Shown here: piece by piece, positions 21,491-64,000 of the stretch | Position numbering within the stretch: position 1 is the stretch's first letter | Layout: every line of letters begins with the position of its first letter | Assembly (NCBI GenBank): GCA_964016885.1 | Contig: OZ024745.1 | Location: 81,902,001 to 81,966,000 of the forward strand | Length of the DNA: 64,000 bases | DNA from: Eledone cirrhosa | Taxonomy: Eukaryota | Reading direction: 5' to 3' | Position numbers and translations under genes: made by a program | Notes under the pieces: model-generated | The model's database searches: none | What the model was told of the DNA's origin: nothing | The model's input: only the letters and a program-made list of their open reading frames with translations

Positions 21491-21577
21491 CAACATGAAA
21501 AGTTAAAAGTGGAGAACGCAAAAGTTAAGGAAGAAAATAGAGCTTTGGCTCGGGTCATCTCCAAACTCTCCAGATAG
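21491..21577 (+). CDS. PPP1R12A: Alternative stop-containing exon D1: variant leucine zipper QHEKLKVENAKVKEENRALARVISKLSR*
   Basis: Long polypyrimidine tract and ttccag|caa acceptor, phase 0. Encodes 28 aa + TAG with the RVISKLS C-terminal signature. A second in-frame acceptor would start the exon at 21473. Confidence 0.85.
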   Translation, partial: QHEKLKVENAKVKEENRALARVISKLSR

Positions 21578-24200
21578 GTAAATTCAGTGTGTCTCGAGAT
21601 AACATCAACCTTTCCAGTTGATTGTGAATCCCAGCATGATAACAAACCAGTTCTTCTTTATTATTATTATTATTAAATGGCTCTCTTCAGTTTCAGTCTC
21701 TAGTACAACTGACAACCAGCATGGTACTTTGACTTATGCTTAGTGTTCCTTGTTTGGTTTATCTCTCTCTCGACTTTAATCATATTCTTATCGAATGTTC
21801 CGGCGATACTTAACAGCTTCTGTGATTCTCAGATTGCTCTGTGTCTTTCTTTTTTTTTTTTTATTCTGTTTACAACCCCCCTGGTGCATTTATCCCGACA
21901 TATCATTTCTTTCATCTCTATCAATTTCTCTTTAGATGTATTTATAACATACTGTAGCCTAATCAACTAGAGTTGATATAAATTTTATTTACTATTGGAA
22001 GTATTGAATAACTGGTTATATATTTAAATATTTCACATTTACTGTATATATATATGACTAGGAAACAAAACACTCAATATTCAGCCATTGGCCCCAACAA
22101 TAAATCTCACCCTTTCTTTTTTAATCCCAGATCTTTGTCTTTCCTTTCTGATTGATACTTGAGACTATTGCTACGATTTCAATCTAATTAATCTGATTTA
22201 ATCCTAATTATGCTCTGTGGTGATTAGCCAAATCACTTTACATTCTGAGTTCAAATCATGCCAAGGTTGACTTTACTTTTTATATCTCCAGGCTTGATAA
22301 AATAAGTACCAGTTAAGTACTGGAACTAATATAATCAACTTTTCCTGCCCTCAAAATGTTTGCTTTGTGACAATTTTAGAAATCATTACTTATTTATTTC
22401 TCATCCTCACATGCAGTATATTCCTCATCTAGGTGTCAAAAGAGGCCTGACAGCTGCAAACTTCCATTTCCACTTTGTCTATATTTGATATAAGATTCCA
22501 TTTTAATTTGGTTTAATGTGGAATTACAAATAGAACTTCATTTAATAATATTTTAATAACTTAACTCCCATGCTAGATACAGTCATCAAATTGGTAATGT
22601 TCTGATTTCAATTTAACGGATTGCAAGTTTATATTTTCCCTTAACATTCATTTCTAGTCCTATAGAAGTAAGCTATAGCATAAGGGGTGTTGTGTAATCA
22701 AAACTGGAATACCATCATCATCATCAATCTGCCTGTCTATATTGACATGTGCTGAATGGTTGTCATGGTTTCAGTTAATTCTTTTCAGGATTACTTCACT
22801 CTTAGATGGGTCACTGACCAGATCTCCTTTGTATGTTCAATATTTGGCATGATTTCTTCAGCTAGATGTCCTTCTTATCACCAACCACTTTATAGAGTGT
22901 TGACAGCATCCCCACTCGAAAAGTTGACTTGCTCCTGGTGAAACTAACGAGTCTTTACATTGTCTCAGTTAATTTGTTCCTTTCTTTTCAACGCAACTCT
23001 GTTTGTGGCAGAAAGATTGCTAAAAAAGGGCCAGGGTGATAAGGAGATGGTGAGAGATAGTGATAGGATAGAATGCAGGTGATGGATGTCAGTAGGTCAT
23101 TGGGGTGGGGGAGGAAATAGCTGAGAAAGAAATAGACAGATGGGATAGAATAAGGGTTATGGATATCAATGAGTAATAATAGATAAGGGAGGAAGACAGA
23201 AAGATAGTGATGAATATGCCCGAATCTCTTATAAATTTAATATTGCATCTCACTAGATCTTCAACAACTTGTGAAATGTATGTCTGTTACAAAGTTCCTC
23301 CATTCCTACCATTTTGATTCAGATGAGTAAGTAGCCAATAGTATATTTTAGTCTCAAAGTAAAATTAATCAGTTTGAATGTTAAATGCTATCAACTGTAA
23401 AAGTCTGATCTCCCACAATATATCCTGTATATTTATTTATTGCAAATGAACTCCAATTCAAATGATAAAATGTGAAGACATTTTCATTTCCTGTTATAAT
23501 TGTTATGTCTGTAATGAAGGAAACTACTTAACCCAACTTTTTTGTTTCTGGAGGAAAGATAAATGAAACAAAACATGGAAATAAGATTTTGTACGTCTAA
23601 TTAAGGACTCGTTAAGTTGCTGCCACTTCCACTCAAGATATTATAACTGATTACTTCTAATTGGGTCTTAGACCATTGGCATATGGTTCTAACATTGGTT
23701 ATGTAAGCCACTTAATAACTTTTTTTTTAACAATCTGCTATTATAATTCAAGGAGAATCATGAATTTTATTTAAAGCCCCCCCCCCCCCCCCCCCCCCCC
23801 GATAAGATAAGAAGGAAAATTTAGTTATATGAATCAGTGAGGTCATTGTATCCTTACATATGGCCATGAGTTTAAACCCTTTGTTCTTACTCAAATATAT
23901 TCCTTAAATCTACACGTCTGATATAGTACCAGTGTGACTGCTATCTCATTAATTAAATCACTGAAATTTACTATAAAATCTTTATGCTTCAGAAATTGTT
24001 TATGCAAATATTTAAATTTCAAACAGAAAACCTTAAAGTATGAATATATATGGCTTTCAATAAGAATAGTTTAGCTGGATGCTGCAAAATGTTCAATACT
24101 GTTTTGAACACATACCCAAGTGAAATTTTATACCAAAAACGTTTACCTTGTGAGACTAAGATATTACTGCTGTATTAACAATTGACCCTTTAGCAATTGA

Positions 24201-35949: not shown

Positions 35950-36036
35950 GAAATGGATAATCTACGATCTATAAATGCACGCCTGAAAGAAGAGAATGGA
36001 GCTTTAATAAGAGTGGTCAGCAAACTCTCCAAGTAG
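35950..36036 (+). CDS. PPP1R12A: Terminal exon D2: canonical leucine zipper EMDNLRSINARLKEENGALIRVVSKLSK*
   Basis: tttttgcag|gaa acceptor, phase 0. Encodes 28 aa + TAG, close to the MYPT1 C-terminus LKDENGALIRVISKLSK. Too short to appear in the ORF track. Confidence 0.92.
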   Translation, partial: EMDNLRSINARLKEENGALIRVVSKLSK

Positions 36037-37538
36037 TCACAACTGCTTTATTATTACATTTTTTTACACACACACACACACAATATACACATAAGCACAT
36101 TACTTATGCCCCCTTTAATTTCTTATTCTCCTCCTCCCTCTTCTCTATTTACTTATTACTCTACTCCCATTCCCATAGTTCATACCACATCATAATCATC
36201 ATGATCATCGTCATCATTGTCTTCAGCACCATCATAAATATCATGGTCAGGTTCCCCCCCAAATCCAGACATTTGTATCAAAATCTAAACTTTCTGCTTA
36301 CACTGGATTCTGTTCTTGTCTTCCAAACTATAGTTCTTGCATATAACCACCATGCCAACCTTGTTGCAGCTGCTTGGCTCTTGTTGAATACCTATTTTGC
36401 ATGCCAACATACACATACACAAAAAAAAAAAAATGTCTTTTCCTCGTGTTGATTCATAAATAAATTTCAAAGCTACATGCATACTCTGCATCATTCATTT
36501 GTTCCACATTTAAAAGCAAGAAAATAAAAGAATAACAACTTGAAGAACAAAAATAACTCTATACGTTTTATCCCAGTGTGTTGTGTTTGAAATGGATAAC
36601 ACACTGTAGACTATTTGTATTCATATAAAGGCTATAGGCATCCTAGCACAAAATCAAGTGAAGTAACCCCTGAGACAAAAACATATCTAAAGATGTTGGT
36701 AAGCTATATTTACATGGGCAGCATCAGCTTAGCTAAGTCATTTTATCCTGTATTATATATATATATATGTATAAGGGATAACAAAATATTGTTATAGGTA
36801 ATCCAGTTAGAGGTTGTGAATAATTCTTATGGATCGTTTTAGCGTACGGCTTTGTTTGACTCAACAAGAGGTTTACGTAGATGGCGAGTTTATGATTTAA
36901 CTATGTAAGTTTATCTTGGAGTAATAAAATTGAAAAAGTGAAGAATAACATGGTCAACAGTACAAAAAAGGTGAATTTATTTACAGTCTAACAATTGTTT
37001 CTCTGATTGAGTTGTCTAAAAATTGCTGAACACTAGAAGCATGTGTATGTGTATATATATATATATAAGGATTATACCAGCTTTAAACTAGTAAGACCAT
37101 TATTCAGCACTCAATACTCAATACTTTGGATAGTAGAGTGATGACTGAGCTCTTGCCATTTTGAAAGCAAATTCCAGACTCTGGAATTTGCTATCGAAAT
37201 GGCACGACTCAGCCATTGCCCATGTAGCAAATGGGCCCTACATTTATCGAGAGGAGAAACAGCATGAGTAAATGGCAGATACTGTGATGAAAAAGGAATA
37301 AAAAGTAAAACACATATTAATATGAAATAAAGAAAAACAAAAATAGAGTAGAGAATGTAGAGTAGAACATTAAACATAGTTCATAACTCTTTTATAAATG
37401 ATTTTTATTTCTGCCTGTATATAAAAATGAGGAAGGTAATATGTGAGTGAGAGAAAGTATAAAGCTAGTGATAAAAAGGTGGAGCTAATAAGTCCTCATA
37501 GAAAAGAATAGTGAATGGCTAATGTGTGTGTGTGTGTG

Positions 37539-37587
<49 letters not shown>

Positions 37588-40289
37588 TATAAATAGTACA
37601 AATGTGTTGTTTATTTCAAGCACACTCAGATATAAAAGGTATAGAGTTGCATGTCTAATCCTTTTATATTCGTTTTTCGAGTTGTTGTCCCCACCCCCTG
37701 CTTTTAAATAGAGAATGAATGAATAATAGAGAACATGTATGTAGTTTGAAAATGTATTTATGAATCAACTCAGGGAAAACATTGTTTCTCTTTTGTTTTG
37801 TTTTTTTCTCTCCCTATTTTGGATTTTTTATCAGAATTTGTCCTCTGGAATTATTAGAAAGACAGAGAACTATCTTTGAAAAAATCAATTTGGTAAGTTA
37901 TGGAATAATAAAAAGAGAGGACTATTTCATGTACATTATAGAATATATTTGCACTTTTTTTTGTATTAATGTGTATGATGTATTTTACATGCACAGATAG
38001 TGATGAACTGGCAGCCATTAGAGCAATGATAAAATGCCTTGCAGTATTTGATCTGACTCTTGTGTTCTGAGCTCAAATCCCACCTAGGTCAACTTTGCCT
38101 TTCCTCCTTTTGGGATCAATAAAATAAAGTATTAGTCTAGAATGGTAGAGGGGTGGAATCAATAGAATGTTGCCCATCTAGTATTTGTTATTCTGGTGTT
38201 TTGAGTTGAAATCCTGCTGTGGCCTTACTTGGGTAGTAGGCATAATCCACCTCCACCACCCAGTTTAACCCCCACCACTAACCTTTTAGTTCTTTTTTTT
38301 AAGTCTACTCTGTTGCAAGCATTTAGGCCAGGTCTCCAGTTTCATGATACTCTCCTTTCACTAGGTTTGTTGACCCCTCCCTCTCTCATTAAAAATGTAA
38401 AAAAAATAATAAAAAATACAACTTCATATTAAGATTATTTACTAAGATTATTGAAAAATTAGAAATTTGAAAAAAAATTAAGCCTACTAATTGTTAATTT
38501 TTTACTTTTACTACACTTGTTTAAAGAATACCTAATACTTTTCAAAGCCTGGCATTATGGTTTTATATAGATTTTATTTTCCTTGCAATGATATTTAGTT
38601 AGATGCTAAGAGGAATCTGTGTGAATGTAACTGAAGCAAAATAAGGGACTTCTTGACAATCATATTAACATGACTAGGGCTAACATTTGTTTAATTCCTT
38701 CTCTGTTGAGTTATGTGTAGCTTTTGTTTTATCACTGGAAAGAGAAGTTATATTTTAGTATTACCAAATACACATACACTTTCTGTCTTTTTCTTTCTTC
38801 CAAATACATACAATCACACACATATTCTTTCTCAAAGATACACACTTTCTTGCTGTCTTTCTTCCAAATATACACATTTTCTCCCCAACACACACAATCT
38901 CTTTCCCAAATACATACACACTCTCCCTCTTTCCTTCTCACTACCACACATTCTCTCTATCTCTTTCTTTCTCAATTCTTTATTTGTTTCTACAGTGTAT
39001 CTTTCATCATTCTGCCAGTAACTTGTACCCACCACTAAATCAGATTTTATTCAGAGAAAAGAAATTGCTGCTGCTTTAAAAAAAACAACCCTTTTAGTAT
39101 TTTTGATAAAAATACAAACTGCAGTACACAATTGTGGAAATGAGTAGTCAGTCCCCCCCCCCTCCCTCCAACACACACACATTTTATACATGGAGTGTCT
39201 GTGATCCAAATGCCAGGAAGACTATAAATCAAAGTGGTACTTGATGAGATAAGATACAGTGTGGGTATATTAGGTAAAAGTCTGACTGAGTGTTCTGCAG
39301 TTTCAGCTTGTAACCTCTCCTATTTCCTTGAAGCTTTGAGAGGTTACTCTGAAATGTCTGACCTCACGGTTGGACCATAACCTTATTAATACACACAGAT
39401 AGGAGTGTGTTTAGAGAACTAGAAAAACCAAAAATAAGCCCTGTAGAAATAGATTTAGTACACATCTACATTCTATCTAGTGTTGCGGCCTTATTGCTTT
39501 GTTTTATTAATCTATTAAGGGATGTATTCCATCTGTTAAGAAATAGACAGTATGAAAACTATAGAAATAATATCCTAGTTTATCTTCGCACCCCTACATG
39601 TATGAATACATTTTCAAATCATATATATATACGCACACAAGTTAGGTGATTTTTCTTTCATATTCTCCGAAAAAAATTTAACAACAATTTATTTTTTTTA
39701 TCAAGTAATCATCATCATCCTCATTATTATTATTTTTTTTCTTGGAGTCTGTCATTGATGTTATTTAACTGGGAAATTTGTTCAAATGAACATCAAGCCA
39801 CTACCTGTAGCCTCAGATATTCAGGGCATATCGGAGGGTTCTTGCTGTTCCCAGCAAGCCTGCCTTTTGAAGTGTTAAAAAAAAGGGGCTGGACTAACGT
39901 TGTTATTATTATTATTATTATTATTTATTTGATAATGATATTTAATTGTGAGCCTTTTTACTCTGAGTTCAAATCCTGCCAGAGTCAACTTTGCCTTTCA
40001 TTCTTCCAATGTTTGCTGAAGAATAGACTAATAATATATACTAAATCAACTCAAATGACTATGTCCTTTCCTTAAAAATTAACCAACCAATATAATTATT
40101 TATTTTTTTATTTGTAAGTTATTTTATTTCCATTCTTTCTCTCTCTCTCTTGTTCTCCCCACCCTCTCTCTCTCTCTTGTTCTCCCCACCCCTCTCTCTG
40201 TCGTCGTCCCCCCTCTCATTCTCTCCCCCTCTCACTTATTGTGTATGTATAGTTGCAGTCCAGTTTAGTAGGTTGGCTACAGGTTAAAT

Positions 40290-40495
40290 TGCAGTGTGTG
40301 TATACAAAAGGGTGTATAGCTACAGTGTGTGTATACAAACGTATGTATAGCTACAGTGTGTGTGTGTGTGTATACAAACGTATGTATAGCTGCAGTGTGT
40401 GTCTATACAAACGTATGTATAGCTACAGTGTGTGTGTATACAAACATATGTATAGTTGCAGTGTGTGTGTGTATACAAACGTATATAGCTACAAT
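40290..40495 (+). repeat. Tandem repeat of about 30 bp, (GT)nATACAAACGTATGTATAGCTACA, about six copies
   Basis: Directly visible. Confidence 0.85.
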
Positions 40496-41584
40496 CCAAA
40501 TTAGCAGATTGGCTGAAAGTTAAATCGCAATGTTTGCATACAAATGTGTAAATGGATACATCTTAAATTCTGTTAAAGTAACCATTTCTCAGGTTATATC
40601 ATCTAGATTCTATCATCTTGCATGTTGATTCTTTGTTTTTTGTTTTTTTTTCTTCTTTTGCCATTTTTTCCTCTATATCTTTTTTTTTTTTTTTTTTTTT
40701 TAAATCAACCTGTGACACTTAGTGTACATAATGAATATTTGAGGTGAGCCAAACAATTAATGGTGCTATCCTGACTTACCAGTTTTTCCATAATCTTCAG
40801 CTTACATAATCTTCAGCTGCATAGATATTTCTATATCAAGGGAGTGAATGGAGCTACTTTGATTCTGAGGGTCAATATATCCAACTATTGAATCAACTGA
40901 ACAGTCTCATGGATTATATATAATTTAAGTGGCTAAGTATTCCTACACACACGCGCACACGCACAAAGATTACAGTAACGCAATATGTCAAGACTGGCTC
41001 AGTGAATTCCAGGTACGACCCATATGGGTTCCTATAGTTTACATCTAGCCTGTTTCACTCTAAGCTTGGGTTCATTCGATATATACCCGAAAGGACTTAC
41101 ATCGTGTGCTTGAGTACTTAGCAATCTGTGTAATTTCAAGAGCCTGTTTGTGTAATTATGTTTGTACACACCCACGTTTGTGGCTGTGAAATCAATGCAA
41201 ATTATAAAGATGTGTGTTTAGTAACTGGCATATATATATATAAATGAAGAGCAAGAGAATATATTTAGAAATCTAAAAATAAATGTTTATGCTTTAATGT
41301 TTTTACTGATAAAATATTTGCTGCACAGACAAAAGTGTAAATAATCAAAATTGGAAAGGATTCTATTTTTCTAGGTAGCCCGAGAAAGCTTCACTGGTGG
41401 TCCCTGGTCTGTAAAGCAGGACAGAGGAAGATTAACCATACTTATTCTTTCTATCTATGCTCATACATAAACACAAATGCTCTTCAAGATAATTGACAGT
41501 GTATATATGTATTTACATACAAACATAATTGTATGTAGGTATGTATACGTGCTGCACACACACATTCATTATTTTGATATCAAA

Positions 41585-41765
41585 GGGCGGTGGATTGGCA
41601 GTATCGGTGGAGGGTCGGACGCCATGCTTTCCAGCATAGTTACGTCCCTTTACGATCTGAGTTCAAATCCCGCCGAGGTTGACTTTGCCTTTCATCCTTA
41701 CGGGTTCGATAAAATAAAGTACCAGTAATGCACTGGGTAATTGCTGCCTAAAGTAGAAACAATTA
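41585..41765 (+). mobile_element. Abundant tRNA-derived SINE with a Meta-like core (representative copy)
   Basis: GAGTTCAAATCC B box and core GACTTTGCCTTTCATCCTTACGGG..CGATAAAATAAAGTACCAG. Many other copies in both orientations (near 50, 6950, 11120, 22230, 26770, 31170, 33000, 38010, 48200, 57000). Confidence 0.8.
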
Positions 41766-43319
41766 TTTTGATATCATTTGGAGAGTTATATTGTTACCTG
41801 TCTTTACTTTCATCAAAATCTGAGTGTTTCATCTAATCTTAGATTTAAAATTGGTTGATTAGTTTACTAAATAATATAGTATAAGGTTATAATAGATTTT
41901 CTATGAACAATGTAATAGTTGTATTACTTTTTGGTTACATTATAAATGTATAATGCTGCTGCTGTGTGTGTGTTTACACGCACACACACTCGCACACAGT
42001 GTTTGCATACATATATGTAAGAATCAGAGAAAGCTTGTTTAGGCTGAGGTAAGCCATCAGCATCGCTTTTACAGTTTTCCTTGCTGGCGTGGGTTGGGTG
42101 GGACTTTTTGAGGCAATGCTTAACAGCTAGATGCTCTTCTTAACACCAGCCATTTCATTTGCTTCTTTGGATACAGGGATATGGTGCACCTAGTCTAAAC
42201 TGGCCAAGGGGATACACACATGTATGTATATATATATATATATATATATATACTAACACACACACACAAGTATGCATTTATATATATATATATATATATA
42301 TACAAATGTGTGTGTATATGTATATATAAAAATGTGTGTGTGTGTATATATACATGCGTGTATGTGTATATATGCACATATATATATGCCTAAATATATT
42401 GAAAAAAACAGTTAAAGACTCGCGTTAATCCCCTGTAATTTTATGAGCTCAAGGAATAAATTACTGGACTCTCAATAATATAGTATATAGAGAAAAAAAC
42501 GGGTTATATTTTTATTTACATAAATGAAAACATAACCCCTTTTTGTGTTTGCTTCTCTATATACTGTATTATATATTGTATATATGCGTATATTTATATA
42601 TATATATATATATATCATCATCATGGAAGATAGACATTAAACGATGATGATATATATATATATATATATACATACATATATACATATATATATATGAATT
42701 ACGATACAAAGAATTCCCACATTAAAATATATTTGTTGTATATTGACTTACATTTGTAATGTTTGATATACATTATAAACACATTTTAAAGTGAAACTTC
42801 ATTATATCATACTTCATATATACACTTTGTTATATCATTGAGTGCTCACATTGGTGCCATCTCCAGTAATCAACTAAATTACTGAATAACAAGAAAAATC
42901 AAAGGAAAAAAGAGTGTTCCATGTATAATACAGAGCTATTTAATTAGGAAGTTAACTACTCCACTATATCATAGACATTTGATTAATATTATCTAGGGTC
43001 CTGAAACATTTGGTATTGTTGTGTTGTTTACTTCCTAATTAAATATATATATGTGTGTGTGTGCGTGTGCATATATATACATACACACACGTGTGCGCGC
43101 AGACATATGGAAATAGAATTAGGAGCTTTCACCAAAAATTGGCTATAGAAAGTAGTCTAATATTAAGGCATATGAACTCCCATAACTGAAAACATGTGCA
43201 TTAGCATGTATGGGAATTGAACTCACACCTCTTATTTTCATATGCCCTAATATTCTATTTTTAATTGCCACCATATCCTTATTCACATGTGCTTTCATAT
43301 ATATACATACATATATAGC

Positions 43320-44045
43320 ACTTGGTAGCAAACCTATCTAGTGCATGTTGGTGATCACCTTCTGACGAGTTAAGTAATACCATATCGCCTGTAAATTCCA
43401 GCCAGTTGATCTTACACCCGCCAATCATGATATCACTTCCATTCCGACTGCGCATGTCAATCCTGTCAATGAAGATTATGAACAGAAGTGATGACAGTAC
43501 GCACTCTTGGTGGAGTCTGACACCGACATTGAATGGTTTCGACTTAACACCATTTATCCGAATACAAATATTAGGGCATTCATATAGAGACATGAGGGCT
43601 GCAAAAAGCTGTCCATCAATCCCATATTCCTGCAGAATGTTTCATGACAGGTTCCTTTTAAAGAAGCCTGCACAGTGCACACTATATGTGAGTGTGCTTT
43701 CACTGAAGTATGTGGAGAAGTTCAAGTATCTTGAGACTGTGTTCATGAGTGATGGAAGGCAAGAGGGTAAAATAAGTGCATTTGCTAATCAGAAGTGAGG
43801 TAGGTGTAAAAGCCAAACTCACTATCTTCAATTCAGTATTCAAGCCAACCCATTCCTGTGGGTAATGACAGAAAGAATATGGTCGGGAATACAAGTGATT
43901 GAAATGGGGCTTCTCTGAAGGGGTCTAACATTACTTGATAGCGCGCTTAGCTCAGAGTCCAGAAAGTCACTACTTCAAATTGAGAAATCACAATATTATA
44001 GACATTTAGTTAGAATGTCTCAGGAAAGAATTGGTTGACAGACTT
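43320..44045. mobile_element. RTE-type LINE fragment with 5' inversion
   Basis: The minus segment encodes RT (FNVGVRLHQECVLSSLLF...LEFTGDMVLL). The adjacent plus segment from about 43640 continues with VEKFKYL. Confidence 0.7.
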
Positions 44046-44547
44046 CTTCTTTGTTTGCTGCTTCTCTGAGGCCTTGTATTATGGTTGGATGACCCTACTG
44101 TTGCTAACCAAATTAGTTACATCTGTGTGTGTGTGTGTATCAACAAGATGCTTCATTTTTAATATTTTAGCTTAAGGCTTTTTACTTAAAAATACTGTCT
44201 TATTGCAGAAATGTTTTTTTTTATACAGACTCTAAAATGTTATGTAACAAAACTTTTAAAGCTCCTCTCTACATATGTAACAGTTGGGTGATTTATTTTT
44301 GAAAAATTTATTATCAGTTATAAAGTACAAGGAAATTTATTGTTAGATCTCTTACTGAAGATATGCAATAATTTGTGTGTGTGTTTGTGATATTCTTGTT
44401 GGCCATTATATTGGTATTCTATATAGCAAACTCCCAGGAAAATACTAGGAAATATTTCAAGGTTTGGATGTGTGATAACTTTGTTCTACAAAATAACTGA
44501 ACAGTATTGTTGAACAGTGTTTCAACTTTGCTGAAACACTCATAAAT

Positions 44548-44588
<41 letters not shown>

Positions 44589-45103
44589 GCACTTCTGTAA
44601 ATATTCGATTGCTGTGTAAATATTGTACATTTTTTCTATGGGGTCTAATTTATTATGTTGCTGTGTTTCTTACCCCTTATGCCTATCAAATGTGTTTGTC
44701 TACTCATCAACTTCTTGATCTCATTTGTTTGTTTTCCTTTTCAATTATTTAAAAAAAAAAGATTCAGTTACTATTATAAGGTTTCTGATTGTTTTTCTGA
44801 ATATATCTGAATTAAAATTACATTTTCTGCCAACGATTTGTAGCCTTAATAATTACCATCAACAGACTACTTGGAACTTTAAAACGCAAATAAAAAGAAA
44901 TTTTAAAGTTTTCTTGTTTTCTGTTTTTGATAATTGGTATCTTTCGGGAAACCTGCAGATGTTCCATTTTGGTATGGAGATCATTAGTACCAAGGTATAT
45001 TGCATTCGTCATAGTTTAGATCAAAATTTGTTGAACATTACTTTAGAAACATTTCTAAAATTGTTAAAGGTGTTAATTTTCTACATTTTATTGGTCACTT
45101 GCT

Positions 45104-46352
45104 CCTCTGGTGACATGTTGGATCAGAGGTTTGCATAATACACTTCATACTATTCTTCTCTACCATTATCGGCATTTACAGGATCTTCTGACTGTGCTCA
45201 CATTGTCTAAATGACTAATTTACACGTAGTATTGCCTCTTACTGCTGGAAATGACTTTTCTTTTTTAAATTAGTATTTTTCTCACTCGTAAATATGGTTG
45301 CAGTTTTCTACAGTAAGCTTTGTGTGAATCAGTCATTTTTACTTTAGTGAATACCTATTTCTTGTTAGTTTACTTCATTGTACATTCTGCATGATATGTT
45401 GACTCATAGTTCCCTACTGTATACTCAATGACAGTTGGGAACTTTGATTCCTATATCGTGAGTATGTTTGACAATCTAAGGTGACATGTTGGACCTTAGA
45501 GCTGTATACTAATGAAAAAAGTGTTTTTTGCTCACAACCAAACAAGAAACTCAAGACTTTTATTGAAGATGAGCATGAACAAATCTATTGAGCTTATTTT
45601 TTTTAATGTTTTCAATCATGTACAAATAGATGGTCTCTTAATTTATGTCTATACATTTCAATATGCTATGTTCATTAATAGAAGTCTTGCTTGATTTCTT
45701 GCTTTTGTCAGCAAATCCACTCCATTTAGGCCTTATTGTTGAAAGTATTATGTAGTTGATAATTTGTCTTCCCAGAAAATGTGAGGAAGGCTTTCTTTCA
45801 GATAAATGTTTGGGAACCTTACAAATGCTATGAGGGTTGTTGTATTTGTGCGCATATTTGTATAATGGGTCAGCAAGAGTGTAGACCCTATATATAGAAA
45901 TGTACACATATCCAACACTCTTTCTCACTGAACCAAGTTCGATAAAAAAGTTACACATCCACATGAAATATCTGTCCATTTGCTTCATTACTTTTAAAAA
46001 CAGAGCTCTACGCTACCAATCTATAGCTGAATTTAATATTATTTCCTGGTTTTATGATAAATTCAGAGAACCTTTAATAGAATATTTTTTTAGAATGCTA
46101 GATATTATTAATGATATATTTAACCATAAGGTTTTGTTTTGTAGCAGTGGCATGAACACATTAATGTCAAGTTTCTGTGCACAAAAAGGCCTATTCTGTG
46201 CTAGACTGTTGCTGAAAGCTTTAGATATATGAAATATCCTATTAATTTAATCCATTTTTAGATATGCAGGGAAACACCAAGTCTCTATTGCTTTCAGTTA
46301 TTGAAACTGTAGCTCTGGTAAGGTTTTCTTAGGTGACATGTTGGACCTAAGA
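45104..46352 (+). promoter_or_regulatory. Three copies of a conserved stem-loop (45104-45129, 45475-45500, 46327-46352), putative cis-regulatory RNA element
   Basis: Invariant 10-nt loop GACATGTTGG closed by 8-bp stems of differing sequence: CCTCTGGT/ATCAGAGG, TCTAAGGT/ACCTTAGA, TCTTAGGT/ACCTAAGA. Confidence 0.6.
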
Positions 46353-48199
46353 TTTGCACAGTTTTGCTTCTCTTTAATGCCTTCAAAAATGTTCAGATCA
46401 GCTTTTGCTTTAAATTATCATATATTTGTAAAAACTATATTGAAAATATAAGAATTTTATTAAAGTTGACAGAAACTCTACTTCCAGCTTCATTTATTTA
46501 TTTATTTATTTTCTTTTAGAAAAATAAACTGAAAAGTGTGGGAATTGTTGAAAATATTGTGTGTATACCTACCTCAATGTCAGTTTCTAACGGTGATTAT
46601 CATCTTGCTGTAAAGGGACCAACCAGGAACTTATGTGAAACTCAATTGAAATAAAGCTCTTTTCAGCATATCAATCTCAAGCATGTCTTATTTCATAACA
46701 CATGCTTGAGATTTTAACAAATAGCTTTACCCACAAACTATTATTGTGTCAACTGATTTTTTTCTCAACTTATAACAGTTGCTTCTTATTATGCTTTTCT
46801 AAGAAGTTATAAAACTAAACCCACCAGAATAATGAGTGGCATTGTTGCAGTTTCTTTAATATATCTTCTGACGTCTAGGTGAAACTTAATCTTCTCTTAT
46901 AAGATATAATATATTGCTATAAATTATCAACTTGAATTCACTCTCATTATTATGTTGAACAAATATTTAAAACCAGCGAAAACATTCCCAAATTATTTAC
47001 TTCAATCACTGATTTTGACTGACTACTATTAAACATCTCTCTTAACTAGTGAATGGACTAACTTATTTGGAATGAATTTTCTAAATGTTTAGTTTCAGTC
47101 AGCATTATATAGTATTTAACATAAGATGACTCTGATTATTATAAACTTCTTTTAATAGTAATTTTCTTATCGATAGTGGCTATATTAGATTTTATATATA
47201 TATATACACACAAGGTGTGTAAATAAAGATACTAAGGTAAATGCACTGGACTGCAATTTAAACAATAATCTAATTTCCAGAACAAACTCACTCATCTGAA
47301 GTGATATAAAATAAATTAAATAAAATAAAAGAATGCTGGATAGTAAATATATAAAAACAAATTACATTCATTATTTGAATTATCTCGTTTTACGAAAAAA
47401 TGAGAAAGAAACAACCAAAGTATTTTCCAATCAATTTGTAAATTAGATGTCTAGTGGGTGACTGTAATTCTAATGCGTAGTCAGTATATCAAGTATAGTT
47501 CAGCTGTAGGGCTCTGTGTCTAAAGTAATGATCATAAAGAATTTTTCTTGCTCATTTCTGTATAATATTATATCTTATTTTTGGCTAAGGTAACAATAGG
47601 AATTATGGAAAAACTGGTACTTTATTGTTAGTCTTTGAGATTTTTTTTTTTATAAATCCCATGTAAGTCATTTTCACTACTGCTAAATCAATTTGTTGAT
47701 GTCTGCATAATTTCTTCTCCATTTAGTTATGTTTTGTCAGCTAATTACAGTTGATGAGGGCAGGAAGAGCACCAGTGCTATGACTACTCTGTAACTATGA
47801 CATTCTACACCCATTTGAAAAATAAAAAAAAGAACGACATTTATAAAAAAAAAATAAAAAAAAGTGCACGCATGTTACTTGAGGCATTGAGTTTCTGACG
47901 TCAATGTCAAATCTCCTAATAACTGTAAAACTGTAGAATATTAGTGGAAATATAATTTTAGTAATGAATAAATTGTTTGTTCACTTAACACTGTTTTATG
48001 TTTTCTCTATTATATTTTCTATTCAGTATTGTGAGTTATTTGTGTGAGACCCACAAAATATGATATTGTGATTAACAGGTATCAACTATTTGAGGAAAAA
48101 AAAAACACAAGGAGCAAATTAGGTGAAATGACTTAAACAGGAATTTAAACCACATTACAAACACAGTTGTATAGGAGTTTATCACCATTTTGAAGTGAC

Positions 48200-55210: not shown

Positions 55211-55710
55211 TTCTCTCTATATATATTTCTAGTTTCATCCTCTTATGTAATTATTTGTTTTTTTGTCCAACACTGTGTTTATGTATAAGTTGCGCGAGTG
55301 CGCAAACGACGTGTGTTCGTAGTTAAACCTTACTATATTTATCTGATTTTTTTTTTTTTTTTGCCTGTCTGGTTATTTGGATACTTACATCCTAAATTGC
55401 GTTTATGTTTGTATCTTTTATATGTGTATGTATGTATGTGATTGTATGTGTGCGTATGTGTATATATATATATGTGTGTGCGTGTGTGTGTATGTATGTA
55501 TATGTGTGTGCATGTATGTATGTTTATGTGTATGTATGTGTGTGAGTATAAGTATATGTGTGGGCAGATGCTTATATATGTATTATTTTTTCCCCATAAC
55601 CTTACGTTCTATTTTTCCCGTTATTTTATTTTATATTATATATCAGCCTCGCTTTCAATTGTTTTAGCCTTTGTTTTTAAATTCATATCTTATGTCCATA
55701 TTAAATAAAA

Positions 55711-55783: not shown

Positions 55784-57583
55784 TAATTGTCTTATGTTGT
55801 TTATTATATCACTAAACAACTCTGTAGCTTACATAGAGCACTCTCCTTTCCTTTACCCTTCCTATGGAAATACTTAATATATATAATGTATGTACACACA
55901 GACAATTCCTGGCTTATGAACAAGTTCCATTTTGGAAAGACACTGGCTATTCTTTTCAAATAATTTTGAAAATAGTGAAGAATTAAAAGAATTTAGTAAT
56001 GCAGCTAAACTTTACTTAACAAAAAATTTGACGAGTACTAGGTAGTTGATATCAAAAGGGATAAACAGTTTGGAAATTCTTTGTTGAGCTGAAATATCAC
56101 TAAAAATGCAAAATATTTTGATGTGTGTTGCAAAGTAGTCTACTTATTTGTTCTTACTCTTGTATGTTTAGCAGAAGTTGGTTGTTAACCAGGGTTTTGC
56201 TATGTAAAGGAAGTTAGACTCACTAAATCATCATGTGACAAAAAAAAAAAAACAAGCTTTATCAAAAATACTGGTATAAATGCTTCTCATCAGTAGGAAA
56301 ATATATATAAGCAAAATCATGGACATGTTATTGATGCTCAAATTTTCCATCATGGTGATCATCTGAAATATATAAAAAATATTAGTTTTCATTATAATCT
56401 TGGTCATATCTGGAATGAATATATTATAATATATTATTTGGAATCTCTTGGTTCTAACAGAGAAAATAACCTTAAAACACTTGGTGTATGTGTCTGTATA
56501 TATATATGTATATACAGACTGAAAAAACATATACACATGTGTATACAAATGATACAACCAGTAGTCTCTATCGTTAAAATTTTCCATGAATTATGACCTC
56601 ATAAGAAGCTAGCTGAAGTTATAAAGGTGTTGGCTGTAAATTTCATCTCATATGAAATATATATTAGATTTATCAATACAGATAAAGGATGTTACAGATG
56701 CTTTTGAAAAGTATGCATTTCTCATGCAGAATTGAATTATGTGAGCTGCACGAAAACATGCAATTGGTGAAGTTTGTGTGTAAACTTGATCTACATTATT
56801 GTTGACTCTATATGGCTGTTCAAGGCTGGCGTTATTAGTCATCATATTGATAGACAAAACATTGACTGTAAGATGTTTATGACATAAGACAATGCAATGA
56901 CCTTTCGTTAGTAGGCTGCAATTCTATTACATTTCTAAAAAATATTCAAAGAATTAATGGTTTCTGACATAGTCACAACTCAAGAAATTTTGAGCAGGAA
57001 GGGAAGTCGATTATACGACCCCAGAAGGATAAAAGGCAAAGTTGACTGTGGCAGGATTTGAACTTGTAGTGACCTATACGTTCCTAGGGCTCATAGAAAC
57101 TCAACACATAAAGGGCTGTAACTATATCCTGCAAAACATGGTGTCTGATGCTCTACCAATTCTGGCAATCCACCATATTTTATTCAAAGAAATAATTGTT
57201 TCTGCTTTTGGCACAAGGCCAGCAATTACCCAGTGCATTACTAGTACTTTATTTTATCGACCCCATAAGGATGAAAGGCAAAGTTAACCTCAGCGGGATT
57301 TGAACTCAGATCATAAAGGGAGGTAACTCTATGCTTCAAAGCATGGCGTCCGACCCTCTACCGATACTGCCAATCCACAAAAGGAACTTCTTTATCTTTT
57401 CTTCAATCTAGTAGAATCCAAGTTTTCATTGGAACCAAGAAAGGAGTCTTTACATGGTGATTCAACCTGCTAGAGAAAGCAGCCAAATCTCTCTCAAATT
57501 ACGCCTACTATCTTAAATAAAGAATGGTATATATATATATATATAATATATAAGAACAAAAGATGGTTAAAAGAGTTCCATGT

Positions 57584-57652
57584 ATTTTATTATGCGCATT
57601 TCAAAAACAAATATCATCATGCAATAATATTTGTGTTTTCATCAGATAAAAC
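57584..57652 (-). ncRNA. Minimal type I hammerhead ribozyme in the PLE pLTR
   Basis: Minus strand reads GUUUUAU-CUGAUGA-stem II (ACAAAUAUU/GAUAUUUGU)-GAAA-UGCGCA (palindromic stem III)-UA^-AUAAAAU. Confidence 0.85.
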
Positions 57653-58581
57653 AGGAAGACATGATATGAAGGTTAAAAAAAAAACACTTGTGGATAGTGC
57701 AGTTTTAAATCAACATATGAAAAGTAGTTTTAGATTGATGTGTGATATTGGCAAAAATATTTTATTTTGAGGGGGGTGGGGTGGAAAGGATGAAAAAGAG
57801 GAGGAGATGAGAGTAAAAAGTGGAGAGGGAGGAGTATAATGAGGAAGGATGAGATAGGAGGAGAGATGGGTGATAGAGAGAGAGAGATAGCTTTTATAAC
57901 TGAGAAAAATATATTGTTTTACATAGAGAGGTTGAAAACCGTTGGAAGATAATGTATAAATTAAAAGAATTTGAAAATTAACGAAGAGAAAAATAATGTA
58001 AAGTTAAGGTTTGTATATTGAAGGGTTTAATAATATGTGCGATGAAAAGAAAATGTTAATATGTATTAAGAATAATATTTAAGGGTTTAATAATATGTGC
58101 GATGGAAAGAAAAAGTTAATATGTATTAAGAATAATATTTAAGGGTTTAATAATATGTGCGATGGAAAGAAAATGTTGATATGTATTATTAAAGTAAGGA
58201 TATGTTGTGAGATGAGCATGAATAAGTTAGATGAAAGGGAGAAAAAAATAATGAATTGAGGATGAATAATCTAACGTCAAAAAAATGTTTATGTTTATGA
58301 AGGATTTTTACAAGGTGATATAGAGTAAGAATGTATTGTATTATGTAATAATTGTTTCTATGTTAGGCAACAGTGAGAAAAGGTACAGATTAGGGGTTAG
58401 ACATTAAAAGAAAAAGAGAAGAAAGGGAAGTGATAAATATGAGTGATATAGAATGAGTAACAAGTATTATATAATGTATAATAAATAACTTTGAAATAAG
58501 GTAGAAAGATGGGTATATTTTTAAAGAAGTATATATATATGCCTTTGAGAAAAAGATTCTAAATTGATAAAGTTTTGGATA

Positions 58582-60262
58582 TTAGCTGTATACTTTGTGG
58601 AATGTTTTGTGGAATTTATGCAAGCAGATAGAGAACAAGTCAGTGCGTCTATTTATTATAGAATCTAAATTAGATATAATGGTAAATTTTTCATTTAGAC
58701 AGAGATTGCAAATCTTGGATAGAGAACTGTTCAAGTATGGAGACGCAGAAGAAACCTTCTTCCAAAAGATGCTATATTTAATATTTTTGTCTTTCAAGGA
58801 CCATATGAGTTCTGAGAGAGCCGTGTTGGTTCTTTTAAGTTTGTATTTAAAAGACGAATGATGGTTATAAAGACGAGCTTTAAAGGAGGTGGAAGTGGAG
58901 CCAAAATAGGTGAAGGAATTGGTGTCAGTTATAACTTTACATTCGTAAATTAAGTTTTTATCAAGACAATGGTTGTTGAGAGGACATTTATTTTTAACAG
59001 GGCAATTGCAATTGCGATTAGAGAGATTATTAACGAGTGACCTAGTGTTATCTATAGAAGGAATTGGATTGGAGAAGTTATTTGCGATAGGAATAATAGT
59101 TTCTTGATTTAGAATGGGATTAAGAACATTTAGCAAAGTTGTGTTTGACGTTGTATTTGGGTTTGCAGAAATTAGCCTAGAGTTTACAATGACGTCGGGA
59201 GTACTATTACTATTATTATGATATTCAGTGTTGGAAGGAAGAGATTTAGTATTTAGTATTTTATTGTTGTGTTTAGAGATAATGTTGGAAATGTTGGAGG
59301 ATGTTGAATAGGAAAATTTTATAGTGTGTTTGTTAAATATTTTACTATAGATATGTGAGGGAGGGAAGCATTTATTTAAGGCACTAAAGAATAATTTAGG
59401 AATATTATTATTAATAGAGATGGAGAAAGGAGCATTATACCAGATTATGTTTTTGTATCTAGGTCTTTAAAGTTATTGGAATGATCATGATTAATTATTC
59501 TACTGTAAGATCTTCTAGAATTTGTTTCTTTACTATATTTGATTTTATCAGGATAGCCGGCTTTAGAAAGCGCGTTGTTATAGTAATTGGCGTTAGCATC
59601 AATGATGTTTTTATTAGAAGATAGGTTAGATATTCTTTTTCCAATATTACTAACTATAGCATTCTTGATATTAGTAGGATGGTTAGATTTAAAGTTAACA
59701 TAATTTAGGTTCTCGTTGTTTTTATGGTAAGGGTAATATAGGCCAGTGTCAAGATTAAGAGATACATCCAAGAAATTAGCTAGTTTGATGCTGTTATCAA
59801 ATTCAATTTTTAGGTTATGTTGGTTAAAGAGATTACGTATATTGTTCTTAATAATATTAAGGTTAACTATGTTGCAATTTAAGATAGTAAAGAGTCCATC
59901 GTCACGATAAATTCCACCGTGAAGTTGAGGAATTTTCCGACTCAAAGAGTTCAAAATAAAGATACCAATTAAATCTGTCAATTGGGATGAATCGGATGCT
60001 CCCATTGTGATGTCGAAATTGTTAGAGGTATCGGCTCTGGTCCAATATTCATTGTTGAACTCTAGGATGGTTTTACGTGCGGTGAGAATGATGTGAAGTT
60101 CATCTGTGGTGATGTCAGAATATTTAAGTGCGAAAGATAGAGCATTATTGAGAAGTGAAGGCGAAATAGAAGAATAGTAGCTGGCAATATCAAATTGAAC
60201 AAATTTTAGTTTGTTTTTATTATTCAATTTGTTGAACCAGCCAATCCCTTCAGAAGTACCAA
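58582..60262 (-). pseudogene. Disrupted PLE RT-GIY-YIG ORF with two frameshifts (near 59460 and 59360)
   Basis: The linker segments KNIIWYNAPFS and HIYSKIFNKHTIKFSYS lie in different frames. The N-terminus is replaced by the inverted pLTR copy. Confidence 0.8.
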
Positions 60263-60540
60263 ACCATTCTATATCACTCATATTTATCACTTCCCTTTCT
60301 TCTCTTTTTCTTTTAATGTCTAACCCCTAATCTGTACCTTTTCTCACTGTTGCCTAACATAGAAACAATTATTACATAATACAATACATTCTTACTCTAT
60401 ATCACCTTGTAAAAATCCTTCGTAAACATAAACATTTTTTTGACGTTAGATTATTCATCCTCAATTCATTATTTTTTTCTCCCTTTCATCTAACTTATTC
60501 ATGCTCATCTCAATATATCCTTACTTAAATTACCTGTTGT

Positions 60541-61270
60541 TCATCATCATCATCATCATCACCGTTTTACGTCCGTTCTTCCACGCTAGCATGGGTTAGA
60601 CGGGTTGTCCTGTTGTGGGCAGTGTCTGGTCGGCTGACCATGCCTTGCTCATACAGGAACTGATCTGGCTTGATTTCTACAGCTGGATGCCCTTCCTAAC
60701 ACCAACCTCATTTACAGTGAGTGCTGGGTGCTTTTTCGTGGCGCCTACACGTCCACTTTACAGTGTGGGCTGGGTGCTTTTTTTTTTGCCGTGGCACCTC
60801 CACGACCACCTTGCGGTGGGGGGGTGGGGGGGCATATTGTTTATATGCTTCAGCATGTACCCATGGGAGGTCGGGTACCCTGTATTACTGCGTGACGCCA
60901 GAAGTCACGGTCGTGTGTCATTGACTTTGAGAGGTGTAGTTGGGTAAGGTCGGCTTTTATCACCTCATCCCAAGTCATCTTGGGTCTCCCCACTCCGCGG
61001 TTTCCATCAACTTCTAGTGCTCTGCACCTTTTTATGCAGCTGTCATCCTTCATACGCATCACATGTCCATACCAGCGTAACTGCCTCTCCTGCACGCAGC
61101 ATTTGATTCCTCTTATGCTCAGTCTCTCTCTCAATTCCTTTATGCTTTGTCGTTCACGTATATTACTGTTACACATCCATCGGAGCATGCAGGCTTCGTT
61201 TCTCTCTAATCTACGTAAGTCTTCCACCTTCAGCGCCCAGGTCTCACTACCATGCAACATCGCTGTTCTT
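60541..61270 (-). mobile_element. RTE LINE 3' fragment inserted into the PLE inverted pLTR
   Basis: ORF LHGSETWALK...RQLRWYGHVMRM...RGVGRPKMTW, followed by the 3' UTR and (TGA)n tail. Confidence 0.9.
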
Positions 61271-61810
61271 TTTAATAATACATATCAACATTTTCTTTCC
61301 ATCGCACATATTATTAAACCCTTAAATATTATTCTTAATACATATTAACTTTTTCTTTCCATCGCACATATTATTAAACCCTTAAATATTATTCTTAATA
61401 CATATTAACATTTTCTTTTCATCGCACATATTATTAAACCCTTCAATATACAAACCTTAACTTTGCATTATTTTTCTCTTCGTTAATTTTCAAATTCTTT
61501 TAATTTATACATTATCTTCCAACGGCTTTCAACCTCTCTATGTAAAACAATATATTTTTCTCAGTTATAAAAGCTATCTCTCTCTCTCTATCACCCATCT
61601 CTCCTCCTATCTCATCCTTCCTCATTATATTCCTCCTTCTCCACTTTTTACTCTCATCTCCTCCTCTTTTTCATCTTTTCCACCCCACCCCCTCAAAATA
61701 AAATATTTTTCCCAATATCACACATCAATCTAAAATTACTTTTCATATGTTGATTTAAAACTGCACTATCCACAAGTGTTTTTTTTTTAACCTTCATATC
61801 ATGTCTTCCT

Positions 61811-61879
61811 GGTTTATCTAATGAAAACACAAATATTATTGCATGATGATATTTGTTTTTGAAATGCGCATAATAAAAT
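61811..61879 (+). ncRNA. Hammerhead copy in the inverted pLTR with core mutation CUAAUGA (G5A), probably inactive
   Basis: Same motif as 57584-57652 but with G>A at 61820 (plus one stem I change). Confidence 0.75.
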
Positions 61880-62003
61880 ACATGGAACTCTTTTAACCAT
61901 CTTTTGTTCTTATATATTATGTATACTCCAGTCCTACAAACTGTAGAGTGCTTCTTATCTGATATCTGCATTGCTTTATTGTACTACAATAAAACTCACC
62001 TCC

Positions 62004-62041
<38 letters not shown>

Positions 62042-62045
<4 letters not shown>

Positions 62046-63402
62046 GACAGGGGGGAAGAAAAAATGGTTTCACTTGTGCTTTCAACAAATTTATTTTCTT
62101 CACAAAATCCAAAAAGAATTTTTCTTAAAAATAATTATTTTATAAATTAAGTTGTTGGTTAGGTCTTAGGAGTTGTTGGTTAACATAGGAGGTATTGTTT
62201 CGTTTTTAGAAAGACCTTTCACGCTGAGGTGCGCTTGTCAAACTGATGTGTATGTGGTGTGTTGTTCTATATATAGGGATTTAACATGTCTGTGGTGTGG
62301 TGGGGGTTTCTTTTCTCCCCCTTTTAATAAGTGCATGGGTGTAGGTGTGTTGAAAAAGTGTTCATAGCAGTAATGAGTTGAGACGGTGAGTAGGGTTGGG
62401 TGGGGAGAAATGTAGCAAGTGCCCCGGTCATTCTCGAAAAATTCCTTTATTCAGGGGAAAAAGCTTTTCGCATGGCTTTTGTGTTGAGAATGGTCACAGG
62501 CAAATCGCACCTGTCAAGTTTGTGAATAATTATTTTTTTCTTCTTTTTTTCCTGAAGAATTTTTCGACGTCCATCCCAAAGTTAGTCCTTTGTTCAACAC
62601 ACACATATGTGGGCATATACGTACATACATGTGTATGTGTATGTGTATGTATATATATATATATATACCCATGTGGAGGTATGAGTACATATTCGTGTGT
62701 GTTTTTATATGTGTCTCTATATGTTTTTGTGTATGTATGTGGATGTATTTGTGCATGGGTGTGTGATTGATGGTGTGTGCCTATATATTCCTACATATGC
62801 CCGTGTGTGTATGTACGTATATGCCCACATATGTGTGTGTTGAACAAAGGACTAACTTTGGGATGGACGTCGAAAAATTCTTCAGGAAAAAAAGAAGAAA
62901 AAAATTATTATTCACAAACTTGACAGGTGCGATTTGCCTGTGACCATTCTCAACACAAAAGCAATGCTAAAAGCTTTTTCCCCTGAATAAAGGAATTTTT
63001 CGAGAATGACCGGGGCAGGCCGCACTTGCTACATTTCTCCCCACCCAACCCTACTCACCGTCTCAACTCATTACTGCTATGAACACTTTTTCAACACACC
63101 TACACCCATGCACTTATTAAAAGGGGGAGAAAAGAAACCCCCACCACACCACAGACATGTTAAATCCCTATATATAGACCAACACACCACATACACATCA
63201 GTTTGACAAGCGCACCTCAGCGTGAAAGGTCTTTCTAAAAACGAAACAATACCTCCTACGTTAACCAAGAACTCCTAAGACCTAACCAACAACTTAATTT
63301 ATAAAATAATTTTTTTTAAGAAAAATTCTTTTTGGATTTTGTGAAGAAAATAAATTTGTTGAAAGCACAAGTGAAGCCATTTTTTCTTCGCCCCTGTCTT
63401 AA
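62042..63402. mobile_element. Large foldback element with arms of about 590 bp (62042-62629 / 62808-63402) and a (TG/TA)-rich spacer
   Basis: Near-identical reverse-complement arms beginning next to (TA)n. No convincing ORF. Confidence 0.85.
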
Positions 63403-64000
63403 CATACCTAACTGTACCAAGGATTACACACATTTTCCAATATATATATAACTATGTATGTAGTCTTTGAGATACAAGATGATGATCAAGACTGGACTAT
63501 AATAGTGATCAGTCAGAGTTGACTTAAAACTAAACAATATCAAAAATCTTACTTTCTACTTCTTACGATTTTTCTTTACCAGTTCACAGTCTGGATAGTT
63601 CAAGGCATGTTCATGCATAGGTTTATCATGTACATTCCAGTTATTCAATGCTCCATCACAATAGTAACAAATAGTACGGTCATCAGGACCTGGAAAGAAG
63701 TTCATTGAAAATATGAAACCAATACATTTCTATAATGATATCTTCTAAATTACTACCCATGAACATACTCATGTGGTTTCAGGTTTGATCTCACAGTATA
63801 ATTTCTGAAGCAAGTCAGATTAAACTATGATAGATTCAACTTAAGTGACAATATCATAGTTAAGTAGCCCAACAAAAGTCTTAAATAACAATATCGTAGT
63901 TAGGCAGCTCAACAAAAGTCTTAAGTCACAACATCTATTTGTATATGCACAACAATTTATGTACATATTTTGTTTATCCCATATCGAACTTTAAAAAAAA

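Follow-up and report, generated by a model that had tools for sequence, protein, structure and literature searches.

The window studied here is a stretch of 64,000 nt from Eledone cirrhosa (contig OZ024745.1, positions 81,902,001 to 81,966,000, forward strand), and it contains three copies of a short hairpin with one loop and different stems. The locus raises the question of whether these copies act as RNA and, if so, in which transcript and with which partner. A sequence-only reading of the window had described three 8-bp stems followed by UUUGCA, GCUGUA or UUUGCA, and all three were found at these positions on the + strand (Table 1). The loop GACAUGUUGG is exact in each of them (starts 45112, 45483, and 46335, all +), and every copy minus its GG is a near-perfect 24-bp palindrome.

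The same reading held that the stems differ yet stay paired. Both bases differ at stem pairs 1, 4, and 5, copy 1 has a G-U at pair 7, and every change in the stems keeps pairing, giving 24/24 paired stem cells (equally high in 9/500 shuffles). When the same number of substitutions was placed at random, all pairs were kept with P=0.055 for copy 2 vs 3 and P=0.0011 for copy 1 vs 3, and the loop was spared with P=0.37 and P=0.017, respectively. The product of these four P values gives a joint probability of ~4e-7 for the substitution pattern. The individual 46-nt copies have a modest stability when folded alone (z -1.7 to -1.8), and stem pair probabilities are 0.5-0.97 when they are folded in a 326-nt context. 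Extended lower stems below the 8-bp helix gave no gain over shuffled flanks (28-33% of shuffles were as good). The hairpin signal is one of covariation rather than stability. The flanks had been called unrelated, which holds for five of six comparisons of 150-nt flanks (at control level); the downstream flanks of copies 2 and 3 rank in the top 2%. Two donor-like sites lie within the array, at 45313 and 45458, and the latter is a GTGAGT site 17 nt upstream of copy 2.

Table 1. Features of the hairpin array, of its surroundings and of related loci. Positions are those of the window unless a contig is given.
Feature	Position	Strand	Remarks
MYPT1 alternative leucine-zipper exon A	about 21491..21579	+	PF15898, E 1e-8; GT donor directly after stop
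MYPT1/PPP1R12A leucine-zipper exon B with stop codon	35950..36036	+	PF15898, E 1e-9
T-rich block holding the array	44170..47325	+	without detected repeats
Acceptor-like sites at block start	44170, 44208, 44228	+
Hairpin copy 1	45104..45133	+	8-bp stem 45104-45129 (one G-U), loop 45112-45121, tail UUUG
Copy 1 loop palindrome	45112-45119	+
Hairpin copy 2	45475..45504	+	8-bp stem 45475-45500, loop 45483-45492, tail GCUG
Hairpin copy 3	46327..46356	+	8-bp stem 46327-46352, loop 46335-46344, tail UUUG
AATAAA after copy 3	46523, 46650, 47222, 47310, 47319	+
Short BIR-domain (IAP-like) gene	56328-63699, also L008:2893-3201	-	transcribed towards MYPT1; last exon placed by eye
Lone ubiquilin-intron hairpin	L064:3939-3968; octopus contig C6 near 63486441	sense strand	exact loop, 10-bp AU/GU stem

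The hairpin is rare in the octopus genome (3.0 Gb). Its 15-mer core occurs exactly seven times, and the stem is formed in three of these, all of them window copies. Three genome patterns, which asked for the loop with either U or C, for U-A as its closing pair and for a seventh position able to pair, returned 96, 94, and 16 rows. Among these 206 listed loop sites all seven pairs were present, as judged by eye, in just four, namely the three from the window and a site within an intron of ubiquilin, so that the concern of the earlier reading that the motif might be a fragment of a high-copy repeat does not apply. The ubiquilin-intron hairpin lies ~90 nt past a donor, lacks the tail and scores 18 bits. 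By an estimate of P=0.002 per site over roughly 400 sites, ~0.8 full stems are expected by chance, and this hairpin is within the chance range. A search of the window and of 200 kb of DNA around it with the hairpin model gave no extra copy, and other candidates in the octopus genome reached at most 20 bits vs 45-55 bits for the true copies. The bins 44401-48000 had no BLAST match to the other stretches in a small sample of the octopus genome. A 61-bp satellite on octopus contig C10 (40838883-40840165; 19 rows) has the same loop with an inverted 4-bp inner stem, and this match is probably due to chance. A transposon terminal hairpin (LINE/SINE tail or Helitron end) was rejected: many dispersed copies with shared flanks would be expected, and three of the seven core matches have the stem. 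The Rfam search suggested earlier gave no match over the copies at E up to 10, bar one sub-threshold snoRNA match (E 6.3). Viral contigs had 13 matches to a 16-mer, none with a full stem, and no match to the refined pattern.

A second array was found when a metagenome collection was scanned with a 24-base pattern, which returned a single contig, L040 (Ga0307383_10011067, 2671 nt), a match that taken by itself might be fortuitous. It has 48% GC and a longest open frame of 136 codons, and it showed no Rfam match above threshold, no MYPT1 exon and no other DNA similarity to the octopus genome. All five copies of the 12-mer core in L040 lie on one strand, where 0.0004 are expected per strand, and four of the five lay outside the query that found the contig. 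Three of them have full 8-bp stems of different sequence, and a 1x1 internal loop interrupts the stems of the other two; the loop variant GACAUGUCGG (U8C) is present in two copies. Window copy 3 and one L040 copy have 24 identical nt in common. Two variant motifs, UACGGUCGGA, at 1822-1831 and 1742-1751 (-) of the contig have the 3' half of the loop in common with the family, and the self-pairing of their inner six bases is weak (-5.6). The contig also contains a ~100-nt hairpin (856-960) and several hairpins of the GACCUU...AAGGUC type with variable loops, and there are 14 TGACCT words in its 2.7 kb.

The three window copies and the three full-stem L040 copies were combined in a six-copy alignment, from which the two imperfect L040 copies were excluded. 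All 48 stem cells are paired and double changes are found at six of the eight pairs, which strengthens the covariation argued for from the window copies. In the shuffle test 0/500 reached the observed value on four of five measures and 31/500 on the fifth, slid controls were 13-54% paired, and RNAalifold recovered the same structure unaided from the aligned copies. The consensus is an 8-bp stem closed by U-A, a loop GACAUGUYGG and an NYUG tail. Nine of the ten loop positions are invariant over eight copies from two sources, and the stem terminates at pair 8 in 6/6 full copies. The tail is found at +1 in six of eight copies, comprising all six full ones and neither imperfect one. The proposal that a G-U pair, which would be A-C on the other strand, favors a + strand RNA also held across copies: oppositions inside the stems are G-U in five cases and A-C in none (sign test about 0.03). 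This 5:0 bias favors a single strand in the array orientation, for which RNA is the simplest candidate. The first proposal of a multi-copy stem-loop under selection on the + strand is supported by the window and strengthened by the five further copies on L040. We consider it a real hairpin family that occurs in same-strand multi-copy arrays, is apparently undescribed, and likely acts as RNA.

We infer that the window array is transcribed, and the nearest gene on the same strand is MYPT1, whose exon B stop at 36036 is 9.07 kb upstream of copy 1. The exon upstream of the MYPT1 C-terminus matched 22 octopod PPP1R12A-type proteins at 78-85% identity, and the C-termini of these proteins correspond to exon B in 16 cases, to exon A in five and to another sequence in one. 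The 9 kb between the exon B stop and the array contain repeats and a reverse-transcriptase relic, and AATAAA is already present at 36459-37326, all of which speaks against a MYPT1 UTR. None of 69 + strand frames tested in 36179-46229 matched Pfam. A search for hidden coding exons in 72 frames (65 of the 103 listed and seven others) gave one Pfam match, the reverse-transcriptase relic at 43279-43638 (-). From its sequence, the T-rich block may represent a distal 3' UTR or a terminal exon. The host of the array is probably the MYPT1 3' UTR; a separate non-coding RNA is a distinctly less probable host, and any other host would be rather surprising. The proximal MYPT1 3' region also has an inverted repeat whose 12-bp arms match perfectly around a single central nt (37164-37188). 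The BIR gene on the minus strand was rejected as host: the putative last exon of this gene ends around 56330, an AATAAA is located near 55630, where the gene appears to end, and LINE-type DNA follows before the array. Large apparent inverted duplications, as assembled, surround a LINE and a GIY-YIG/Penelope-like stretch at 57500-63400.

Loop bases 2-7 form a perfect palindrome, and bases 1-8 (GACAUGUY) lengthen it with a G-U or G-C pair on either side, so that self-pairing gives six Watson-Crick pairs plus these two end pairs in all eight copies. Loop-loop pairing is predicted because of this self-complementarity, with a loop self-duplex of -8.6 (U form), -11.2 (U with C) or -13.8 kcal/mol (C form). 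Among 30 single loop substitutions U8C is the only one that strengthens self-pairing, and it is also the only loop variant seen. A comparable palindrome was found in 1.2-3.4% of control random 10-mers. The hexamer alone is AU-centred and weak (-4.6 kcal/mol; two of six bases are G or C). The GG 3' of the palindrome is invariant in 8/8 copies, and an extended duplex is predicted to be favorable by -10 to -14 kcal/mol against two hairpins. The Roquin-like CA-UGU-UG triloop that had been suggested for the loop was not borne out, as its 2-bp helix is predicted to be less stable than the open loop, has a pair probability of about 0.3, and is broken by U8C in two of five L040 copies.

The best reading of these data, which we put forward tentatively, is a multivalent kissing-loop array that would also be read by a protein. 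Hairpins repeated in same-strand arrays would act as RNA, likely in a long MYPT1 3' UTR, where their self-complementary loops would pair with each other and a protein would likely read the loop or tail. Pairing would be open to all combinations of copies, on the same transcript or on separate ones, and since there are three to five copies the RNA would be multivalent. The resulting RNA dimers or clusters might serve transport or translational control. That an undescribed RNA family in the octopus and an unrelated organism represents a natural multivalent kissing-loop array in a cellular transcript is, as a whole, rather doubtful. The palindrome is a post hoc observation that was noticed after several other ideas, and position 8 (U/C) is a CpG/TpG site and therefore likely to vary under any model. 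The hexamer is identical in the octopus and L040 copies, where pure self-pairing would permit other palindromes. The prior for kissing is also low because few cellular RNAs are known to homodimerise (PMC9104694).

The fixed stem length and the NYUG tail point to a protein reader, and because of this and the caveats on the palindrome the kissing-loop array is held to be about as probable as plain docking. In the latter case the hairpins would be monomeric and would each dock the same RNA-binding protein or RNA enzyme, which recognises the open loop and the NYUG tail by sequence; repetition of the copies would serve avidity, as in the TFRC IREs or MAT2A hairpins, and the palindrome would be incidental. 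This is possible to almost the same degree. It is how repeated UTR hairpins are most commonly known to work, and it agrees with a loop fixed at 9/10 positions in the copies from both sources and with the fixed stem length and tail. The palindrome must, however, then be a 1-3% coincidence, with the U8C variant in addition. Known readers also fit poorly: the YGAC and GACR words preferred by Bicc1 are present in 8/8 copies (PMC8249388), but its GACN1-3GAC motif is found in 0/8 and the RBM39 motif in 3/8, and IRE, METTL16, and U1A words are absent from all loops.

The remaining explanations would have the copies act on processing, act as DNA or not act at all. A role in pre-mRNA processing, in which the hairpins would steer how an alternative terminal exon is spliced or where its 3' end is set, or a place in a separate ncRNA processed from the block, would agree with the acceptor-like sites at the block start (44170-44228), a cluster of three from among the best nine in 36000-45200, with the GTGAGT site before copy 2, with the lone hairpin on the sense strand of the ubiquilin intron, and with MYPT1 exon A, which ends in a stop and a donor so that a downstream exon is needed. 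The acceptor score is, however, ad hoc, with 20 for the best new site vs 23 for the real exon B acceptor, and the peptide from these acceptors ends none of the 22 octopod MYPT1 isoforms. On L040 the copies keep no constant position relative to splice-like sites, and the ubiquilin copy is what chance would give. We consider such a role very unlikely. Fractionally less probable again is a DNA-level element, in which a transcription factor would bind the palindrome or single-stranded DNA would form the hairpin. Dimeric DNA-binding sites typically have palindromic cores and the minus strand folds too, but duplex binding needs no covarying arms, no single orientation (3/3 and 5/5), no G-U excess of 5:0 and no one-sided tail, and there is no adjacent second half-site of the kind present in p53 elements. 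Least probable of all is that a transposon end or a local duplication left the copies behind as a neutral relic, with stems mended by template switching. DNA-level correction of quasi-palindromes is possible, but the full stem is found in so few (4/206) of the genome loop matches, the flanks are unrelated, and the same motif and tail recur in a contig that cannot be aligned; the neutral relic is already largely refuted.

Searching the literature with the loop 10-mer gave an HIPK2 siRNA as the sole match, and the 14-mer gave none. A topic search found no description of the hairpin, which may nevertheless be recorded in supplements, in subscription papers or in structure catalogues of vertebrates or flies. 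Two such catalogues make no mention of PPP1R12 in their main text. Few structured cis-elements of animal mRNAs have been curated, mainly from vertebrates and flies. The model is sharp (26 nt plus tail) and strong covariation is seen in both sources, which should make a reader or partner of the hairpin directly findable. Should the wider reading of a multivalent family in both organisms be true, a MYPT1 mRNA with 3-5 identical self-complementary loops would cross-link into RNA-scaffolded granules and localise myosin-phosphatase synthesis. Kissing loops would make the array a naturally occurring counterpart, in several copies, of the lone oskar palindrome and a test case for the reach of sequence-specific RNA-RNA pairing in organising cellular mRNAs (PMC13549266), while a protein reader would make it a new regulatory pair of the IRE/MAT2A type.

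Several known elements were compared with the family. The U11 snRNA 3' stem-loop was rejected as a model for a mimic, as the two U11 genes in the octopus genome (C4:182848605 and C1:365616724) have a different loop. By inspection an H/ACA reading fails on the lack of ACA in the L040 tails, and a miRNA reading on the conserved part being the loop and not an arm. The Roquin CDE requires a 6-8 bp stem beneath a YRN triloop (PMC6294493); the family likewise has UGU in the loop, but such a stem under the triloop is absent and the inner A-U pair is broken in 2/5 L040 copies. The Bicc1 site in the Dand5 3' UTR has YGAC/GACR at the stem-loop junction as in 8/8 copies here, a five-base match that is weak, and the Bicc1 element was rejected on its bipartite consensus (PMC8249388, PMC12439600, bioRxiv 2022.07.22.501140). 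The single-stranded N(G/U)NUUUG site of RBM39 lies partly inside the stem in the copies that have it and was rejected as well; RRM1 of RBM39 is described as having no loop preference (PMC10477243).

The family resembles the MAT2A and TFRC arrays in having several dispersed invariant-loop hairpins with covarying stems, and differs from them in its loop sequences and in having no Rfam match and no bulged C. Dispersed hairpins with invariant loops, covarying stems, and unrelated flanks are typical of both the MAT2A 3' UTR hairpins bound by METTL16 and the TFRC IRE array. Both systems are named in bioRxiv 10.64898/2026.10.24.761493. The IRE has a CAGWGH loop and a bulged C, and the MAT2A/METTL16 hairpins have a UACAGA-containing loop. 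The latter was rejected here, with UACAGA in the loop of 0/8 copies, and the earlier judgement that the hairpin is not an IRE stands, as no loop of the eight copies matches (one match sits in a stem) and Rfam gave no hit.

Kissing loops require a self-complementary apical loop of at least 6 nt, which is present in 8/8 copies; a GC-rich hexamer is absent, and only the 8-mer reaches the range of HIV DIS and oskar (-7.2 and -10.4 vs -7.9 and -10.7 kcal/mol for their hexamers, same model). Most unpaired loop bases of HIV DIS are 5' of the palindrome, whereas those of the octopus and L040 hairpins are 3' of it, a placement of the GG unlike HIV DIS. In HIV-1 DIS the palindrome has conserved purines beside it, and kissing can lead on to an extended duplex (PMC7357161). 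Like DIS, the family has a short stem and a palindrome in a loop of similar size, and its invariant purines may correspond to those of DIS; DIS is, however, a single-copy viral element with a GC-rich hexamer and without sequence similarity to the family. In oskar a loop palindrome and proteins together drive dimerisation and granule assembly (PMC11567897; PMC13549266). As in oskar SL2b/OES, the self-complementary apical loop belongs to a hairpin in a presumed animal transcript and protein cofactors would be expected. The oskar element is, however, one 67-nt stem-loop with a GC-rich hexamer, while here 3-5 dispersed 26-nt hairpins have an AU-centred hexamer with G-Y pairs, a fixed stem and a tail, and dimerisation is a prediction. 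By sequence the family belongs to none of these systems, and it may well work like oskar SL2b and HIV DIS or like the MAT2A/IRE arrays.
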